Source: Candidatus Heimdallarchaeota archaeon (GTDB taxonomy: Archaea > Asgardarchaeota > Heimdallarchaeia > Heimdallarchaeales > Heimdallarchaeaceae). Taken from it: a DNA stretch of 64,000 nucleotides. A program made the position numbers and the translations under genes. The stretch's first letter is position 1, and each line of letters starts with the position of its first letter. The notes under the pieces were generated by a model that saw nothing but the letters and a program-made list of their open reading frames with translations, was not told where the DNA came from and did no database searches. The DNA lies in the NCBI GenBank assembly GCA_030608385.1, contig JAUWEG010000001.1, positions 23,479 to 87,478 of the forward strand. Reading direction: 5' to 3'. Positions 20,086 through 46,807 of this stretch are shown here, in pieces.

Positions 20086-20796
20086 TCATTCTTTTTTGGT
20101 GGTGGTTTTCTTTCTAGCTAATTGTTCTTTGGCAGATGAAACTGGTGTTTTAACTTGTTTTTCCTTAACTGTTGTTGATCTGGATTTAGCTGCTCCTGAT
20201 GGAGTGACTCCAAATATCCTGGAAATTATTGAACCAAAAGCAAAGGCAGTTATGAAATACCAAGTTGAAAAGGGAACTTTTGAGAAGAAACGTCCATTGT
20301 ACTCTTCAAGTCCAAACCAAGGGTTGCTTCCTATCCAGGGAAAATTTCCAATATTGAAAGGCAACCAAGCATAATAATGTGTTACTGGATTTGCTTCTGT
20401 GGGAACACCACTTGGAAAGGCACCTCGTAAAATTGCAAATATTAGCAAGAAAGGAATAGTTGTAAAAAGCATTGGCTTCATTCGTTTAAACATCATAGAG
20501 GATTGCATTTTCTTGATTCTTTCCTCATCCCTTTTTACACTTAACCATAATTTCTTATCTGCAGTTTGCATGGCTTTCTTTCTCCTTTGGTTCCATTCAT
20601 TGACTTTTTGCATACTTTCCTTTAATGCATCAACGTCTGAAACTACTCTGGTGATTGTTGTTGATATAATAGCAAGTAGAACAGAAGTTAATGCAATGAT
20701 CCAAGCCGAAGTAGGTCTTTGATTAAGTCCATGTTCTATCATCCAGTTTGTTAGTCCTTTAAACCAATTGTCCCAGAAAGCCATAACTAAAACCAC
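20086..20796 (-). CDS. DUF106-family membrane protein (Oxa1/EMC3/TMCO1-like insertase homologue)
   Basis: Three TM segments with a coiled-coil between TM1 and TM2 and a basic C-terminal tail. It sits at the conserved archaeal position between secY/adk and cmk. Confidence 0.65.
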   Translation of the reverse strand: MVLVMAFWDNWFKGLTNWMIEHGLNQRPTSAWIIALTSVLLAIISTTITRVVSDVDALKESMQKVNEWNQRRKKAMQTADKKLWLSVKRDEERIKKMQSSMMFKRMKPMLFTTIPFLLIFAILRGAFPSGVPTEANPVTHYYAWLPFNIGNFPWIGSNPWFGLEEYNGRFFSKVPFSTWYFITAFAFGSIISRIFGVTPSGAAKSRSTTVKEKQVKTPVSSAKEQLARKKTTTKKE

Positions 20797-25214: not shown

Positions 25215-26267
25215 ATGGGTGGAATACGAAGATATAAAAAGAAAATTCTAACACCAGGTCATCCTTATGATAAAGATCGAATTGAACGAGAGTTGCCATT
25301 AGTTGGTGAGTATGGATTACGAAACAAGAAAGAATTATGGAAAGCTAGAACTTTATTATCAAAAGCTCGACAACAAGCTCGTGCTCTTCTAGCTCTAACA
25401 CCTGAAATTAGAGAACAAAGAGCAACTGAATTATTATCCCGTTTAACTCGTTTCGGTATGCTTCCCCAAGGTGGGGATCTCGATTCTGTTCTAGCATTGA
25501 ATGTTAAAACAGTACTAAACCGCAGATTACAAACAGTTGTCTTTAGGAAAGGTTTAGCATCTTCTCCCTATCAAGCTAGACAATTTATTACACATAGACA
25601 CATCGCTCTAAATAGTGCGGTAGTTACAGCTCCTGGAATGCTAGTGAAGATAGATGAAGAAGAACATATTGCTTATGCACCAAGTTCTCCTTTAGTTAAA
25701 CAAGATCATCCTTCAAGACCACAAGCACCACCAACTCAAGTTGAAGAACCTCCTAAAAAGAAAGAAATCCCTAAGGGTAGAGGAAAGCCTAAACCTGAAG
25801 TCAAGCCTAAAGTTGAAGTCAAGCCTAAAGTTGAAGTTAAACCTAAACCTGAAGTCAAACCTAAAGTTGAAGTCAAACCTAAAGTTGAAGTCAAACCTAA
25901 ACCTGAAGTCAAACCTAAAGTTGAAGTTAAACCTAAACCTGAAGTCAAGCCTAAACCTGAAGTCAAGCCTAAACCTGAAGTTAAGCCTAAAACAGCACCT
26001 GAAGCTGCACCAAAGGAAAAACCTCTTGTTAAGAAACCTGCAGAGAAAATACCTATTGCACCAAAAGATGATATTTCATCGATTAAAGGTATTGGTGCTA
26101 AAACAGCAATGCTTCTCAAAGAAAATGGTTTCAACACAGTCGATAAAATTGCTAAAGCTACAGTTGAAGATCTTTCCAAAGTCCCAGGTATTGGTCCTGC
26201 TACTGCTGAAGCTATGAACAAAGAGGCTAAGAATTTGTTAGCCAAAAGTAAGGAGGAAGCTAAGTAG
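25215..26267 (+). CDS. rps4: ribosomal protein uS4 fused through an 11-copy PK(P/V)EVK repeat linker to a C-terminal tandem helix-hairpin-helix domain
   Basis: The first roughly 170 aa are canonical S4 (S4 RNA-binding domain, [10 protein letters not shown]). Then come the [12 protein letters not shown] repeats. The C-terminus has IKGIGAKTA ... [12 protein letters not shown] HhH motifs. Confidence 0.8.
25786..25989. repeat. tandem 18-nt repeat (cctaaa[c/g][c/t]tgaagt[c/t]aag), about 11 copies, coding
   Basis: Seen directly in the sequence. It encodes ([12 protein letters not shown])n inside rps4. No spacers are present, so this is not CRISPR. Confidence 0.85.
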
Positions 26268-26275
26268 GTGATTTT

Positions 26276-27031
26276 ATGAGTGAAGATAAAAAAGAGAAGA
26301 AAGAATCGGCTAAGAAAACTAAGGAAGACGTTGAAACTCCCAAAGTAGAAGAGAAAGTTGAAGCTCCTAAGAAAGAGAAGAAAACTTCCACTACTAAGAA
26401 GCAAGAAAAAACCGAACCTCCTAAAGAAGAAAAGAAAGCCGAACCAAAGAAACCCAAAGAGACCAAAGATAAAAAAGCCAAGGATGAAGCTAAACCTAAG
26501 AAAGAAGAAACTGAAGCTCCTAAAAAGGAAAAATCTAAAACCAAAGAAGAAGCTAAACCCGAAGAAAAGGCTAAATCTGAAGAGAAAGCTGAACCCGAAG
26601 CTAAACCTAAACCTGAATCTGAAGCTAGATCTAGAACAAGAAGAAGAGATTCTAAATACGGTGTAGCTCATATCTTTTCCAGTTACAATGATACTATCGT
26701 TCATATCACCGACATTTCAGGTGCTGAAACATTCAGCCGTAAAAGTGGAGGAATGTTTGTTAAAGCAGACAGAAATGAATCAAGTCCATATGCAGCGATG
26801 AAAGCAGCAAACTCAGCAGCACAAGAAGCGCAAAGTAAAGGAATATATCAGCTGTATGTACGTTATAGGGCACCAGGAGGACATAAGAATAGAACACCTG
26901 GACCAGGAACACAAGCAGCATTAAGGGCGCTAAAAAGATCAGGGATGAGAATATTAAGACTAGAAGATGTAACTCCTTTGCCTCATGATGGCTGTAGACG
27001 CAAAGGTGGCCGTAGAGGCCGCAGAATGTAA
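26276..27031 (+). CDS. rps11: ribosomal protein uS11 with a roughly 120 aa Lys/Glu/Pro-rich N-terminal extension
   Basis: The C-terminal 130 aa are canonical S11 ([20 protein letters not shown] ... [10 protein letters not shown]). The N-terminus is a histone-H1-like KKEK/PKKE low-complexity region. Confidence 0.85.
27002..27031 (+). repeat. direct repeat copy 1 (the last 30 nt of rps11 including its stop codon)
   Basis: aaaggtggccgtagaggccgcagaatgtaa. It matches 29354..29383 at 27 of 30 positions. Both copies are followed by T-rich tracts. Confidence 0.7.
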
Positions 27032-27075
27032 GTTTTTCTACATTTTTACTCTTTTTTTATTCTGTTTTTAGTTTG
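27032..27075 (+). terminator. T-rich tract downstream of rps11
   Basis: gtttttctacatttttactctttttttattctgtttttag. Confidence 0.3.
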
Positions 27076-27125
27076 ACATTATTGGTCTTTTTATTCCATT
27101 TTCTAGATAATTATATAGGATTTAA

Positions 27126-28307
27126 ATGGCAATAGATGAAAAGAAGAATTTCTCTTGTGAAATTTGTGGTCGTAGCTTTTCAAGAAAAGATGGTTTGTAT
27201 AGACATGTTCGATCAGTTCATTCTGAAACTAAGAAATACAAATGCAAGGATTGCGAGCTCTCTTTTTCTCGTAAAGATACCTTAGATCGTCATGTTAGTG
27301 ATGTTCATAAACAAATACGAAAGCATGTTTGTAATGAATGTGGAGAGAAATTCAAACAACCTGGTGCTCTAAAAAGACATATTCAAACAATGCATGAAAA
27401 AGACGTATTTTATGAGTGTCCACATTGTGATGCAGAGTTTTCTCGAACTGATTCTTTAAACCGTCATATCAATGCAGTTCATCTAAACCTTCGTCCCTAC
27501 ATTTGTAAAGAATGCGGCGCTTCTTTTAAGTTGTCAGGTCATCTTAAGGAGCACATAATATCTGTACATACAAACAAACGAATTCATGTGTGTGAGGAAT
27601 GTGGTTTTGCATTCAAGCTTCGTAGTCAGCTCAAAGATCATATTAGAGTTGTTCATCAAGACTTGCGTCCTCATGTATGTGAAGAATGTGATAAAGAGTT
27701 TCATCATGCAAGAAGTTTGAGGAAACATATAGTATCTGTACATACTGATAATCTTCCATATGTTTGCGAAACCTGTAAGAGGGGTTTTGCCGACCCAAGC
27801 AATCTATATAACCACAAAAAAGCTAATGCTTGCTGGTATACTTCTACTACAGCCTACAAATGGGAGGAATTGTGTAAAGAAATAGCAGAGGTTTTGTTAG
27901 CTGGTTTAGATTGGAAGTGGAAACCTAAGATTGATACTCCTGATATTGAAGAGCAGAGTTGGATTCAACCTGAAATAGTTGTATACTACGAAAATAATAC
28001 AAAAAGAATCATTGATGCTAAGAGATCTACTCTAGCGATATTCAAGGAGAAGGATTTGAAAGTGTATCCAAAAGTGGCTGAGAAGGTGGAGTTTTGGTGT
28101 CTATATGGAAAAGCTGAGGGGATGTTTGAAGAGGAAGAGGAATTTAAAGCAAGAAATAGTGAAGAGATTATTGCTGAGTTAAAGAAGAAGAAATTTGAAG
28201 AGAATCAGAGTTTTGTGGATAACTTGGTAATGAAAATTCAAATGCTGAGAAAAGGATTTGAATTTAAAGAACAAAAAATTCTTGCCAACTTCTCTGAAGA
28301 ACACTAA
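27126..28307 (+). CDS. C2H2 zinc-finger protein with eight tandem fingers plus a roughly 150 aa C-terminal domain
   Basis: Eight C-x2-C-x12-H-x3-5-H units with conserved F/L positions (for example CEICGRSFSRKDGLYRHVRSVH). The last finger is atypical (H ... C). Confidence 0.8.
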   Translation: MAIDEKKNFSCEICGRSFSRKDGLYRHVRSVHSETKKYKCKDCELSFSRKDTLDRHVSDVHKQIRKHVCNECGEKFKQPGALKRHIQTMHEKDVFYECPHCDAEFSRTDSLNRHINAVHLNLRPYICKECGASFKLSGHLKEHIISVHTNKRIHVCEECGFAFKLRSQLKDHIRVVHQDLRPHVCEECDKEFHHARSLRKHIVSVHTDNLPYVCETCKRGFADPSNLYNHKKANACWYTSTTAYKWEELCKEIAEVLLAGLDWKWKPKIDTPDIEEQSWIQPEIVVYYENNTKRIIDAKRSTLAIFKEKDLKVYPKVAEKVEFWCLYGKAEGMFEEEEEFKARNSEEIIAELKKKKFEENQSFVDNLVMKIQMLRKGFEFKEQKILANFSEEH

Positions 28308-28397
28308 GTGAAGATTGACTATTAAATCCTGAGTTTCTTAATTGCTATAAAAGCTGAAAACCTTTAATTTAAAAGTAATAATAGCATATATTTCTAC

Positions 28398-29318
28398 ATG
28401 TTAAACCAATCGAGATTGAGGGTTTTAAAAAAACTTCAAAGCTTTAGATATCCTTCTATTGTTGAAAGCATGATCAGAGAACGTATGGAAAAAATGAAAT
28501 ATTCCGAAATTCATGAAGGTGAATCTCATGCTCATCTCTGTTATAAAAGATTACAGGAATATGAAGTAAACATATTGCGATTGAAAGAAATACGTGAGAA
28601 GTTAGAACAAGAAAGAAAACTTGTTCTATCATTTTCCCTAAATGATTCAGAAGAAGAGATAATTGAACGAATACGGGAACTTAAGGAAAATGTTCAAACA
28701 AAGGAATCTAAAATAAAAGCAAAAGTTTCTTTACCTAAAACAGATGAAGAGATAAAAGAACTTACTGATGAAATTTCTTTATATTTCTCACAAGGATATG
28801 AGATGTACAAAACATCAATTGATGCAGATGTTAGTACTAGTCCCATTGTAGAATATTATGCAATGTTACAAATTATTAAAGCATTCATCTTACTTGAACT
28901 TGAAGTAGATACTCAAGAATTTCTTGGTGCTCATGGTTTAGAGAGAAAGAAAAATATAAACGATAACACAATATTTCAAGTGAAAACAAAAACTCATGGG
29001 GTTTTTGCTGCCTTATTACTACGTACAACTTCTTTTACAATAGAAGAGGATGGAACTCATACAAGTGAGTTACACAAATATTATACCGATTATTATCCAA
29101 AATTTGAGGACTTTGTTAATAAAAAGTTACCATATTTTAGAATTCCTGACACCTTCATTTTTCTATGGATTTTATCTGAAATAGCTCGATATCAACCACA
29201 GAAATGGAGAGAAATTTGCTCAGGAGTAAAAAACAATTGGATTGATAAAATAGATCTATTCAGAGAAGAAGCGGTACCAAAACTTTTCTTTGATTTACTT
29301 GAATATCATTGCAAATAA
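28398..29318 (+). CDS. hypothetical coiled-coil/helical protein (306 aa)
   Basis: Intact ORF that is the second gene of the repeat-flanked island. No recognisable motif. Confidence 0.4.
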   Translation: MLNQSRLRVLKKLQSFRYPSIVESMIRERMEKMKYSEIHEGESHAHLCYKRLQEYEVNILRLKEIREKLEQERKLVLSFSLNDSEEEIIERIRELKENVQTKESKIKAKVSLPKTDEEIKELTDEISLYFSQGYEMYKTSIDADVSTSPIVEYYAMLQIIKAFILLELEVDTQEFLGAHGLERKKNINDNTIFQVKTKTHGVFAALLLRTTSFTIEEDGTHTSELHKYYTDYYPKFEDFVNKKLPYFRIPDTFIFLWILSEIARYQPQKWREICSGVKNNWIDKIDLFREEAVPKLFFDLLEYHCK

Positions 29319-29353
29319 TCCATCAATCAATTTAGTTTCTACTTTGTAATTTC

Positions 29354-29383
29354 AAAAGTGGTCGTAGAGGCCGTAGAATGTAA
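29354..29383 (+). repeat. direct repeat copy 2 (degenerate copy of the rps11 3' end)
   Basis: aaaagtggtcgtagaggccgtagaatgtaa, with 3 mismatches to 27002..27031. Confidence 0.7.
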
Positions 29384-29443
29384 TTTTGTTCTTTTCTCAT
29401 TTTTTATTTTTCTTTTATTTTTACTTAGGTATAATTTTGTTGT

Positions 29444-30007
29444 TTATTCTTCTTCCTCATCTTCATTTTTGCTATCTTCATCAAACATTTCTATTGTCAG
29501 GTCAATATTTAATTTCTTCATGGTCTCTTCGGAAATTTTTCCCTTGCTATTTGATGCAAGAACAATCAACCCCCCATAATCCTCTATTCTCTGAAGTAGA
29601 GAATTAGTTTCGATATTAGCATATCTATCATGAGCATCTGTTATTTCAGTTCTCTTGCCAAAAAGTGCATCTGCTTCGTCAAAGAACAAGATCCAATCTT
29701 TGTTCTCAGCTTTGGAAAACAGTTTGTTTAAGTTCTTTTCAGTTTCACCAATATACTTGTTAAGAATAGAAGCAAGGTCCACGCGGAAAAGAGGATAATC
29801 TAATCTCACATCTAAATATTGAGTCATCGTCTTCCCTTCTGAAGATTTTCCAATAAGCAAAATCCTATAATTTTTGTCAAGATATTCTGATATGTTTTCC
29901 ACAATTTCATTTAATTGGAATTGGACTTCTGATGGCAAAACAATTTTTCTTGCAGCCTTTCTCTTCCAAAATGGGGTTATTCTCTGTATCATTCGTTTCT
30001 GTAGCAT
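29444..30007 (-). CDS. small stand-alone AAA-type ATPase
   Basis: Walker A GKSSEGKT and Walker B ILFFDEAD. The C-terminal tail is acidic. Confidence 0.6.
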   Translation of the reverse strand: MLQKRMIQRITPFWKRKAARKIVLPSEVQFQLNEIVENISEYLDKNYRILLIGKSSEGKTMTQYLDVRLDYPLFRVDLASILNKYIGETEKNLNKLFSKAENKDWILFFDEADALFGKRTEITDAHDRYANIETNSLLQRIEDYGGLIVLASNSKGKISEETMKKLNIDLTIEMFDEDSKNEDEEEE

Positions 30008-30135: not shown

Positions 30136-30885
30136 ATGTATGAATTATCTTTTGTTCCCAGAATAAGTGAAATTGATGTTAATGGTAAAGTGAAGATTAC
30201 CGCTTTGATGGATTATCTACAACATGTAGCTTACAAACATGCTAATCAATTAGGTATTGGTCATCGACAGATTTTCCATAAAGGTTTAACATGGTTGCTT
30301 TTACGACATACTGTTGAAATTACTCGTTATCCTGAATTAGATGAGGTTCTTAAAGTATCAAGTTGGGTTGCTGAATCAGGTAGCCCCAAATATACCATAA
30401 GAGATTTTGAAATTACAGACGAAAACAACATTATTGTCTGTAAAGCTACAACAAGTTGGTTATTATTCGATTATCGAAAAAGAAAACCAGTAGATTACAT
30501 AGATTATTGGTCAAATTATGATGTAGAGGAGAGGAGAGCTCTAAACTATGGTTTTCCTGGTTTACAATTGCCTAAGAAAATAGATACAAGACAATCACTT
30601 AGAGTAAGAAAGCAAGACCTAGATATTAATCAACATGTAAATCACATAGCACATATCCACTGGATAATTGAAGGAATGCCAGAAAAAACAGTTAAGAGAT
30701 ATGAACTGGAAAAGCTGGAGATTAGTTATAAAGAACAAGTATTTCATGAAGACAACATTACTGTAGAATCAGAAATTCAGAAAGAAAAGGATAATGAAAC
30801 TATCAAGGCATTTCATCAGTTAATTAAAGGTAAGAAGGAAAAACTTGTTTCCAAAGCAATAACACACTGGAAATTACAAGAGTAA
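30136..30885 (+). CDS. acyl-ACP thioesterase family protein (tandem hotdog)
   Basis: Two hotdog halves. The second half carries the acyl-ACP thioesterase signature D-x-NQHVNH-x3-I-x-W. Confidence 0.7.
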   Translation: MYELSFVPRISEIDVNGKVKITALMDYLQHVAYKHANQLGIGHRQIFHKGLTWLLLRHTVEITRYPELDEVLKVSSWVAESGSPKYTIRDFEITDENNIIVCKATTSWLLFDYRKRKPVDYIDYWSNYDVEERRALNYGFPGLQLPKKIDTRQSLRVRKQDLDINQHVNHIAHIHWIIEGMPEKTVKRYELEKLEISYKEQVFHEDNITVESEIQKEKDNETIKAFHQLIKGKKEKLVSKAITHWKLQE

Positions 30886-41369: not shown

Positions 41370-41837
41370 CTATAAATTGTACTTACCTATCTGATCAAAT
41401 GTAGCATATTTTTCTACATATTCTCGAACTTTTCTAGCATATTCTTTAGGGTCTCTTTTCATCAGATTAGCAGCTGTTGAATTTAAAGGGTCATCAGGAT
41501 TTGGATTACTTAAAATGAAGCGAATTGATTCTATAACATCAACTAGATTGTTCGCTGGGGTCCAATCTGCGCCTAGAACCCCTACACATATTCTTGTATC
41601 AAATACATTAGCATGAAAAACCTTTGTTAGCATTTTTACCTTTGGAGGTTTGAATGGATATTCTCTCGGAATATCGATATCAAGTACAAAAACACCATTT
41701 TCATATAAACCTGCTCCAAAAATAAATCCCCTCCATTGAAGTGTATTTCCGTCTATTGGTTTGAATGTTGGCAATTCTTTTTTTAACTCATTGGCTTCGA
41801 TTGCTATTCTAGGCCAAAATTCTTCTTCTGCTAACAT
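41370..41837 (-). CDS. ubiquitin-conjugating enzyme E2 (UBC fold, catalytic Cys retained)
   Basis: FHANVFDTRICVGVLGADWTPA aligns to the E2 HPN-x-G-x-IC-LDIL-x-W-SPA active-site block. Size is 155 aa. Confidence 0.75.
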   Translation of the reverse strand: MLAEEEFWPRIAIEANELKKELPTFKPIDGNTLQWRGFIFGAGLYENGVFVLDIDIPREYPFKPPKVKMLTKVFHANVFDTRICVGVLGADWTPANNLVDVIESIRFILSNPNPDDPLNSTAANLMKRDPKEYARKVREYVEKYATFDQIGKYNL

Positions 41838-46255: not shown

Positions 46256-46807
46256 TTATCTTCCTGCTCGTTTCATAGTTTCATTTTTTATTGCATTTCC
46301 TAGAAGAGCTTTAACTAATTCTCCTATTCCGGCTCCAGTTAATGCTGATGTTTCAAGATATCTACAGCCTAGTTTTCTAGATATTCTTTCTGCATCCCCT
46401 CTTAAAACTTCACGTTTTGCATCAGTTTTATTGCCAACAATTGTAATATCCAAATCAAGATTTTGATTTCTAAGTTCTCTAATCCAATCTGCACACTCTT
46501 TGAATGATTCTCTCCTAGATACATCAAAGATGATTGCTGCAGCATTGGTTCCTGAATATAGGAGATTCCTAACTACTCCAAATCTTTTTTGTCCTGCCAT
46601 GTCGTAAAACAGTGCTACCGCTTTTCCTTTGCCAGTTTTAAATGAATAAGTATGGAATTCAGCCCCTACAGTTGGCTTATAATGTTTTAGAAAAATATTT
46701 TCTGTTATCCTTTTGCAAATTGTTGTTTTTCCCGATCTACCGGGTCCACATATGGCTAACTTGTATATATCGTAATCTCGAAATTTAACTTCCACTTTGG
46801 AATTCAT
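46256..46807 (-). CDS. Ras-superfamily small GTPase (Rab/Ras-like)
   Basis: G1 GPGRSGKT, G3 DMAGQ (Ras-type catalytic Gln), G4 GNKTD, G5 TSAL. Size is 183 aa. Confidence 0.8.
   Translation of the reverse strand: MNSKVEVKFRDYDIYKLAICGPGRSGKTTICKRITENIFLKHYKPTVGAEFHTYSFKTGKGKAVALFYDMAGQKRFGVVRNLLYSGTNAAAIIFDVSRRESFKECADWIRELRNQNLDLDITIVGNKTDAKREVLRGDAERISRKLGCRYLETSALTGAGIGELVKALLGNAIKNETMKRAGR

Follow-up and report, generated by a model that had tools for sequence, protein, structure and literature searches.

A predicted zinc-finger nuclease cassette and displaced gene ends at the rps11 locus of Heimdallarchaeota

The locus described here raises the question of how the end of the ribosomal protein gene rps11 came to be present twice in a 64-kb stretch of Heimdallarchaeota DNA (64,000 nt; hereafter the window, whose numbering is used for all positions), and what brought in the block of about 2.35 kb at whose far side the second copy lies. 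The gene (26276..27031, plus strand; PF00411, E = 3e-43) encodes a 251-aa protein composed of a Lys/Glu-rich N-terminal extension and an S11 core, and the same protein is found on five independent contigs. Its last nine codons and stop codon, the 30-mer AAAGGTGGCCGTAGAGGCCGCAGAATGTAA (27002-27031), recur at 29354-29383, about 2.3 kb 3' of the gene end, with 27 of 30 nt identical. Two intact open reading frames (ORFs) lie between the copies, one for a C2H2 zinc-finger protein (27126-28307) and one for a YaaC-like protein (28398-29318). A previous reading, made from the sequence alone, had proposed an element inserted into the 3' end of rps11 with regeneration of the gene end. In this work the block was compared with related loci, and we lean towards the view that it is a free-standing homing-type endonuclease cassette, an archaeal analogue of the mobile-ORF elements of fungal mitochondria whose enzyme would be of a new architecture.

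The displaced gene end and the foreign tract

The 30-nt direct repeat was upheld by exact alignment, and none of 100 dinucleotide shuffles gave two matches to the 30-mer. Ungapped extension yields 31 matches in 35 positions, with copy A at the live gene end (27001-27035, plus strand) and copy B at 29353-29387; the window has no further match to the 30-mer at up to three mismatches. The T-rich tracts that had been noted 3' of both copies are indeed present. Two of the three mismatches in the 30-mer are synonymous C/T changes, and the third replaces Gly by Ser in the dead copy B.

Related Heimdallarchaeota loci (labelled L001 to L102) supplied the empty site. In L009 rps11 runs directly into the next conserved gene; an empty site had been anticipated in relatives and one exists, although the neighbour of rps11 there is an acyl-ACP thioesterase gene (TE) and not rpoD as had been expected. 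Locus L008 has the order rps11, nuclease gene (the C2H2 gene, see below), YaaC-like gene, relic of the rps11 end, TE, and its DNA, from the relic as far as the start codon of TE, is colinear with the rps11 end and spacer of L009. In the window, copy B and the 36 nt that follow it (29360-29419) share 96.7% identity over 60 nt with the end of rps11 and the 3' untranslated region (3'UTR) of L002, and the DNA after copy A is, T-richness aside, unrelated to that after copy B. By these comparisons copy B and its T-rich tract are the displaced original end of rps11, that is, a relic at 29353..29419 (plus strand; matched to L002) composed of the original last 31 nt (29353-29383) and the original 3'UTR (29384-29419).

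The live gene end shows a different relationship. Against L002 and L009 it has one mismatch in the 240 nt that precede the last 150 nt and 25-26 in the last 150 nt, 11 of which fall at -60 to -31; all of these changes are synonymous and the proteins are identical. The following stretch, which holds the rps11 3'UTR/terminator and the promoter region of the nuclease gene (27032..27125, plus strand), came with the cassette: it is about 95-97% identical to L011 in 60-nt bins and unlike the L002/L009 spacer; the motif GTATTATTGG..TTTATAT is kept upstream of the nuclease gene in relatives. The resident allele was thus an rps11 of the L002/L009 type, and a foreign tract runs from about 26880 to 29352. 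This DNA, which stems from another lineage, comprises the last ~150 nt of rps11 (26882..27031, plus strand, donor-derived by comparison with L002/L009), its 3'UTR, the nuclease gene and the YaaC-like gene. The left exchange is seamless and homologous, within rps11, and the right junction is non-homologous, located 31 nt before the resident stop codon, such that the resident end and UTR survive as copy B. The block had been said to start at 27002; the foreign tract instead begins farther inside the gene, at about 26880.

The comparisons show, in our judgment with high confidence, that the block arose by insertion or replacement, and the proposal that the gene end was regenerated is borne out by the empty site of L009 together with the other-strain allele carried by copy B. 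The related claim that the insertion parts rps11 from an rpoD-rpl18e-rpl13-rps9 block found no support, since rpoD follows rps11 in none of about 25 Heimdall loci, the empty site included, and this gene block is absent from the 20 kb downstream within the window. The inserted block contains no transposase gene, no terminal inverted repeats were found at 27032/29352, and the 30-nt repeat is a gene fragment, so that the features of a transposon or insertion sequence are lacking. An Rfam scan of the block matched no known RNA family, the only match being to the tRNA-Ser gene upstream. A 17-nt imperfect inverted repeat (82%; 27117-27133 and 28314-28330) brackets the nuclease ORF exactly, with one arm overlapping the start codon and the other just beyond the stop codon; it may be due to chance. 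Unusual synonymous-site conservation of the 30-mer was also considered and rejected, as across 21 loci diversity is lower in the last six codons (0.32-0.48) than in codons -20 to -8 (0.5-0.78) but is unexceptional for a highly expressed gene.

A putative zinc-finger nuclease and its predicted site

The C2H2 gene (27126..28307, plus strand) encodes a protein of 393 aa in which eight zinc-finger units (aa 9-236) are followed by a further domain (aa 236-393). The units have the form C-x2-C-x12-H-x3-5-H with 7-residue linkers (PF00096, E = 6e-44; PF13465, E = 2e-37), and the last one is of the C2HC type. Residues 236-393 gave no sequence match in Pfam, NCBIfam or PDB and define a family with 49 cluster representatives in 1.8 billion proteins. 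Within this family the domain is always C-terminal, its fusion partners being C2H2 arrays, helix-turn-helix modules or DUF4379 zinc ribbons. The family-wide motifs are W-E in helix 1, P-(D/E)-I in strand 2 and I-(D/E)-x-K in strand 3, followed by KD..YP and FWCL; in the window protein the first three read WE, PEI and IDAK (in domain numbering W11-E12, P47-E48 and D62-A-K64). The AlphaFold (AF2) model of the domain (pLDDT 90, pTM 0.83) has an alpha-beta-beta-beta-alpha-beta core, for which the top named Foldseek matches were EcoO109I (E = 5e-4), McrC, Bax1, Card1, NucS/EndoMS, Cas4 and AvaII; further fold matches include phage PD-(D/E)XK proteins, one of them annotated as a homing endonuclease. 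The named matches are overwhelmingly PD-(D/E)XK enzymes and the modelled domain has the core and motifs of that superfamily, which supports the C2H2 protein being a putative PD-(D/E)XK nuclease fused to an eight-finger array. Full-text literature searches turned up no account of a protein of this kind, whether from Asgard archaea or among homing endonucleases.

The block had been taken for a remnant on the grounds that it holds no mobility gene. This must be revised, as the C2H2 protein bears a PD-(D/E)XK domain with conserved catalytic residues. Purifying selection acts on the nuclease core, for which comparisons with L008 and L006 give dN/dS values of about 0.11-0.13. Divergence is much greater in the finger region, where dS is saturated, than in the nuclease core or rps11; the locus is a mosaic, its segments differing widely in history.

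A canonical finger reads three nucleotides via helix positions -1, 3 and 6, with the array running 3' to 5' on the contacted strand; all published codes agree on Arg-to-G, and Asp-to-C and His3-to-G have been reported as well (PMC4330361, PMC1183507). Across 13 orthologues the residues at positions -1 and 6 are near invariant (R..R in fingers 1, 2 and 4, Q..R in finger 3, L..E in finger 5, L..D in finger 6 and D..x in finger 8) and position 3 varies. The motif predicted for the array is GNGGNARNGGNG. When a crude position weight matrix (PWM), fixed before looking, was run over the 128,000 window positions, the minus-strand site at 26973-26996 (TACAGCCATCATGAGGCAAAGGAG) ranked third and the adjacent 26997-27020 eighth. 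Of the 21 places in 539 kb of related loci that fit an Arg-only pattern, GNGGNNGNGGNG, 13 are at the rps11 site; with two Asp-to-C assignments added, and R allowed once for Leu TTR/CTN, all 28 matches in 643,670 positions of Heimdall loci are at the rps11 site, the background of this Arg/Asp pattern in unrelated loci being about 7e-6 per position. The PWM scan and the pattern search thus predict that the eight-finger array binds at 26973..26996 (minus strand), over codons T-P-L-P-H-D-G-C, and more generally the antisense of the invariant S11 codons T-P-L-P-H-(D/N)-G-C.

With the fingers so placed, the middle base of each finger triplet is a codon wobble base, and the conserved residues at -1 and 6 face codon positions 2 and 1. 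At position 3 the purine-reading residues H, Q or N coincide exactly with two-fold wobble (His, Asp/Asn, Cys), and small or variable residues with four-fold wobble. Tolerance of wobble changes in the target is known from homing endonucleases (PMC3159444). Finger 8, which is followed by the nuclease domain after a very short linker, faces the end of rps11, and the edge of the predicted site is at -35; so positioned, the nuclease domain would cover the final ~30 nt of the gene, where the relic boundary lies.

Many relatives encode, between rps11 and the eight-finger nuclease, a small C2H2 protein of 4-5 fingers (127-152 aa) without a nuclease domain, which is absent from the window (L010 8837-9286; L012 1375-1758; L013 1303-1752; L019 8485-8943; L022 8470-8916; L099 3669-4055; L102 6291-6740). 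Its -1/6 contacts copy those of nuclease fingers 1 to 4 or 5 (RDxR RDxR QxxR RDxR LxHD), so it should bind the same half-site, and these paralogues may be candidate site-masking immunity factors. Synonymous changes have extensively recoded the final ~36 nt of the live rps11 in L006 (1046-1081), L010/L102, L016 and L099, with loss of both GGCC motifs; L006, for example, departs from the window at 14 of 36 nt. The recoded gene ends of some carriers may bear on immunity to cleavage.

Relics and layers in related loci

For the relic search all rps11 end-plus-UTR sequences served as queries and boundaries were recorded relative to the stop codon. Relics were found to the right of the nuclease gene, with or without cargo, at 11 loci. 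These represent about nine or ten independent events, as L102 shares the junction of the window and L008 its architecture. The left boundary of the relic is at -31 in the window, -30 in L013, -29 in both L008 and L099 (the latter with a second, weaker relic farther right), -22 in L006, -16 in L018, -14 in L011, -13 in L022, about -12 in L014 and -10 in L017. For L102 BLAST gives -22; its YaaC-side junction is that of the window, and the 5' portion of its relic has mutated into a run of A. The commonest boundary is -30±1, and none of the 11 relics reaches upstream of -31.

The nuclease gene is the only constant content of these insertions, and the idea that the C2H2 protein is passive cargo has been abandoned. 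In L018 the nuclease gene alone was brought in, the relic abutting its stop codon; elsewhere it came with one gene (YaaC-like, HIT, PLD/DrmC-like or a 428-aa membrane protein) or with several. The relics of L006 and L017 run on into an older nuclease promoter, and in L006 also into the first 17 codons of an L002-type nuclease gene, indicating that new cassettes land upstream of old ones. In one clade of Heimdallarchaeota an island grows at the 3' end of rps11, and the block in the window is its newest layer. The nuclease gene directly follows rps11 in at least 15 Heimdallarchaeota loci, and a context search with a narrower alignment recovered five metagenome loci, all with rps11 followed by the nuclease gene. 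In L009 the site is empty, in L020 and L023 the gene is absent, in L021 it has been deleted with its promoter kept, and in a JGI contig its ORF is broken; the distribution is patchy, with degeneration, loss and re-invasion, the last evident from the layered relics of L006, L017 and L099. A viral or other mobile donor was considered and rejected, as no viral contig had the 20-mer core and none encoded the nuclease.

The YaaC-like gene (28398..29318, plus strand; 306 aa; PF14175, E = 2e-18) may be cargo or a partner of the nuclease. Genes of this kind also stand beside members of the nuclease family in L008, L102, L011 (2435-3259, minus strand), L022 (10129-10947, minus strand) and L088 (508-3087), and in an older layer of L099 (8001-8924); the L088 protein is a distant family member with a DUF4379 zinc-ribbon array in place of the C2H2 fingers. 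PADLOC gave no meaningful match for the nuclease or the YaaC-like protein, and only the neighbouring AAA gene resembles the anti-phage ATPase IetA. The 428-aa two-repeat membrane protein of L006 (2439-3725) reads in frame through a 21-nt rps11 relic and ends in the S11 C-terminal peptide RRGRRM*. From rps4 across the finger array and the nuclease core, 60-nt bins of locus L011 match the window at 93-100% identity; the similarity breaks off abruptly within the part of the nuclease gene for the C-terminal helical tail (~2240; window ~28100), and other cargo follows. This is a second class of breakpoint that does not lie at rps11.

With regard to the surroundings, the nearest genomes are metagenome-assembled genomes (MAGs) of Heimdallarchaeota with 92-97% amino-acid identity in rps11. 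Upstream of rps11 lie genes for tRNA-Ser, rps13 and rps4, and 3' of copy B follow a truncated AAA ATPase gene (minus strand), TE (30136..30885, plus strand), with which conserved gene content resumes on the right and which adjoins rps11 directly where the site is empty, and genes for a metallo-beta-lactamase-fold protein, DegV, two unknowns, RsmB and queuosine functions. The IetA/IteA-like ATPase gene (29444..30007; PF00004; PADLOC IetA, 2.7e-17) sits between the relic UTR and the TE promoter, and its NCBIfam match is far under the cut-off. It is a separate indel outside the repeat-flanked block and is absent from this position in L008, L009 and L102. The rps4 protein (25215-26267) has C-terminal tandem repeats of the KPEVKP type followed by a helix-hairpin-helix (PF14520, 4e-16), and the Lys/Glu-rich extension of the rps11 protein spans ~125 aa (26276-26650); both are conserved in relatives. 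The window also encodes eukaryote-like proteins typical of Asgard archaea, namely an EMC3/TMCO1-like insertase (20086-20796), a ubiquitin-conjugating E2 (41370-41837) and a Ras-family small GTPase (46256-46807), all on the minus strand.

Origin of the block and its meaning

To judge from the comparisons above, the locus carries the parts of a three-part footprint: a foreign gene end, a putative endonuclease ORF and a relic of the native gene end. In the mechanism proposed here the zinc-finger nuclease would act as the driver, as a free-standing homing-type endonuclease. Having arrived with donor DNA, it would bind the S11 codons and cut the recipient rps11 within its last ~30 nt. The left end would invade the donor homologue and copy the donor rps11 end, the UTR, the nuclease gene and adjacent genes; the right end, lacking homology to the donor, would be trimmed by 0-20 nt and end-joined, leaving a relic, and repeated rounds would stack cassettes with the newest adjoining rps11. 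This course of events would account for the graded and purely synonymous divergence over ~150 nt, for the tight linkage of rps11-end alleles with finger-array alleles (for example L010/L013/L102 and window/L011) and for the constant presence of the nuclease gene in what is brought in. Whether the nuclease is the driver of the insertions is a matter on which we consider the evidence evenly balanced.

A number of observations weigh against this homing interpretation. The finger code is context dependent (PMC4330361), and the strict pattern was partly refined after the match had been seen. The predicted site is intact in nuclease-bearing genomes, and comparison of the position-3 residues with the wobble bases gave no consistent self/non-self rule. 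Positive selection on the recognition helices was not seen in what was a crude Nei-Gojobori test with saturated dS in the finger region. Several of the shorter relic boundaries could reflect later decay and not the original break, the recurrent YaaC-like neighbours hint at a two-gene functional unit, and DNA transfer between Heimdall cells is an assumption. Other members of the nuclease family sit in toxin-antitoxin or defence-like neighbourhoods and not beside conserved genes, and a host gene resident at this locus would also account for the near-fixation of the nuclease in the clade (at least 15 loci).

The last points lead to the main alternative, which we regard as less probable: that the nuclease is a resident chromosomal defence or regulatory protein that happens to lie where the ribosomal operon meets a variable, defence-like island, and that lineages exchange the contents of this island through homology-facilitated illegitimate recombination with the highly conserved rps11 as the left anchor. 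The relics would then be passive scars, and binding of the fingers to rps11 would serve regulation or insulation, or the match would be fortuitous. The presence of the nuclease at the same place in most of the clade, the family's occurrence in toxin-antitoxin and defence-like contexts and the intact site in carriers would all be expected of such a gene, as would neighbours that are typical island content (YaaC-like, PLD/DrmC-like, HIT, IetA-like AAA ATPase) and a cargo breakpoint in L011 that lies inside the nuclease tail and not at rps11. What a resident gene leaves unexplained is that all 11 relic boundaries fall in the last 31 nt of a 756-nt gene, just past the predicted edge of finger 8, that the nuclease is always what is imported next to rps11, even alone in L018, and that its conserved contacts match only the rps11 site in 644 kb.

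A decayed integrative element, in which a tyrosine or serine integrase used an attB in the 3' end of rps11 and was later lost, leaving the C2H2 and YaaC-like genes as cargo, seems to us improbable. Direct repeats that duplicate a gene 3' end and the existence of an empty site are what islands targeting tRNA genes or gene ends would leave, but no integrase or recombinase is present at any of the 11 relic-bearing loci, the repeats vary from 10 to 31 nt where an att repeat would be fixed, and the element-side ends are not conserved; moreover, the left junction is a graded homologous tract beginning ~150 nt upstream with no crossover at the repeat, and the viral contigs lack both the 20-mer core and the nuclease. 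It is most improbable that a local tandem duplication or a metagenome mis-assembly made the second copy. The source is metagenome-assembled, and assemblers can be misled by short repeats; however, the independent assembly L001 has both repeat copies (99.95% identity over 4081 nt), and the architecture recurs in two other MAGs, L008 and L102, so that assemblies from different samples reproduce the structure and an artefact of assembly is excluded. Tandem duplication is excluded because the two copies with their flanks are different alleles, that of copy B matching other strains.

For a homing-type cassette the closest parallel is provided by the fungal mitochondrial mORFs (atp6 of Allomyces macrogynus; atp6, atp9, cox2 and nad3 of Glomus), which consist of a foreign C-terminus, an endonuclease ORF and a relic of the native C-terminus (PMC3630166). 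In these the relic is closer to the genes of relatives than the inserted copy is, the differences between the copies are largely synonymous, and spread has been attributed to the encoded site-specific endonuclease (PMC3630166). The same three-part footprint is seen at the Heimdall rps11, with differences: it lies on an archaeal chromosome, a ribosomal protein gene serves as target, and the enzyme combines a C2H2 array with a PD-(D/E)XK domain and is neither LAGLIDADG nor GIY-YIG. Other differences are that the Heimdall ORF is free-standing after the stop codon instead of fused in frame, that the relic measures only 10-31 nt, that the cassettes carry extra cargo genes and pile up in layers, and that endonuclease activity is here a prediction. 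The free-standing homing endonucleases of phages (Seg/Mob), much as is proposed for the Heimdall cassette, have an intergenic gene that adjoins a conserved target-bearing gene, co-convert the flanks, centre recognition on non-synonymous codon positions and are patchily distributed, with degenerate and lost copies (PMC3943268, PMC3159444), but their nuclease and DNA-binding folds differ from those in Heimdall, where the right junction is non-homologous and leaves relics and where the target seems intact in carriers.

The protein itself resembles engineered ZF-FokI nucleases, with a modular C2H2 array N-terminal to a domain of restriction-enzyme type and a cut expected a few bp past the 5' end of the finger-bound strand (PMC2904710); it differs in being natural and in having an unrelated PD-(D/E)XK domain, a very short linker and eight fingers per chain. 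R2 non-LTR retrotransposons also combine N-terminal C2H2/Myb motifs with a restriction-like endonuclease of PD-(D/E)XK type in one protein and use a fixed site in a gene of the translation apparatus (PMC3636483), but they are elements of eukaryotic hosts, and the Heimdall cassette has no reverse transcriptase, RNA intermediate or target-primed insertion. As far as tested, there is no link of descent between the Heimdall nuclease and either ZF-FokI or R2. Islands installed by tyrosine integrases at the 3' ends of tRNA or protein genes share the duplicated 3' end, the regenerated gene, tandem accretion and an empty site, and differ from the Heimdall block, which has no integrase, repeats of variable length and a homologous, graded left junction.

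The fuller proposal is a tentative one, for which we judge the support to be a little short of balanced: that Heimdallarchaeota possess natural zinc-finger nucleases, in which C2H2 arrays are joined to a previously undescribed PD-(D/E)XK family, that these home on the S11 gene with invariant finger contacts reading codon positions 1 and 2 and the variable contact turned to the wobble base, that serial homing has built a layered accessory-gene island at rps11, and that the 4-5-finger paralogues may protect the site. If true, this would be a new structural class of homing endonuclease whose target can be read from the protein sequence, which makes the hypothesis directly testable, and an accessory or defence-like island would have grown beside an essential gene without an integrase. 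If the nuclease is active as predicted, nature already has an architecture that was devised for genome editing, and it occurs in the archaeal lineage nearest to eukaryotes; to our knowledge classical multi-finger C2H2 arrays are otherwise hardly known in that lineage. The last ~150 nt of rps11 are recombinant in these genomes and unfit for naive use as a phylogenetic marker, and the rps11 mosaic points concretely to frequent exchange of DNA among Heimdall lineages.

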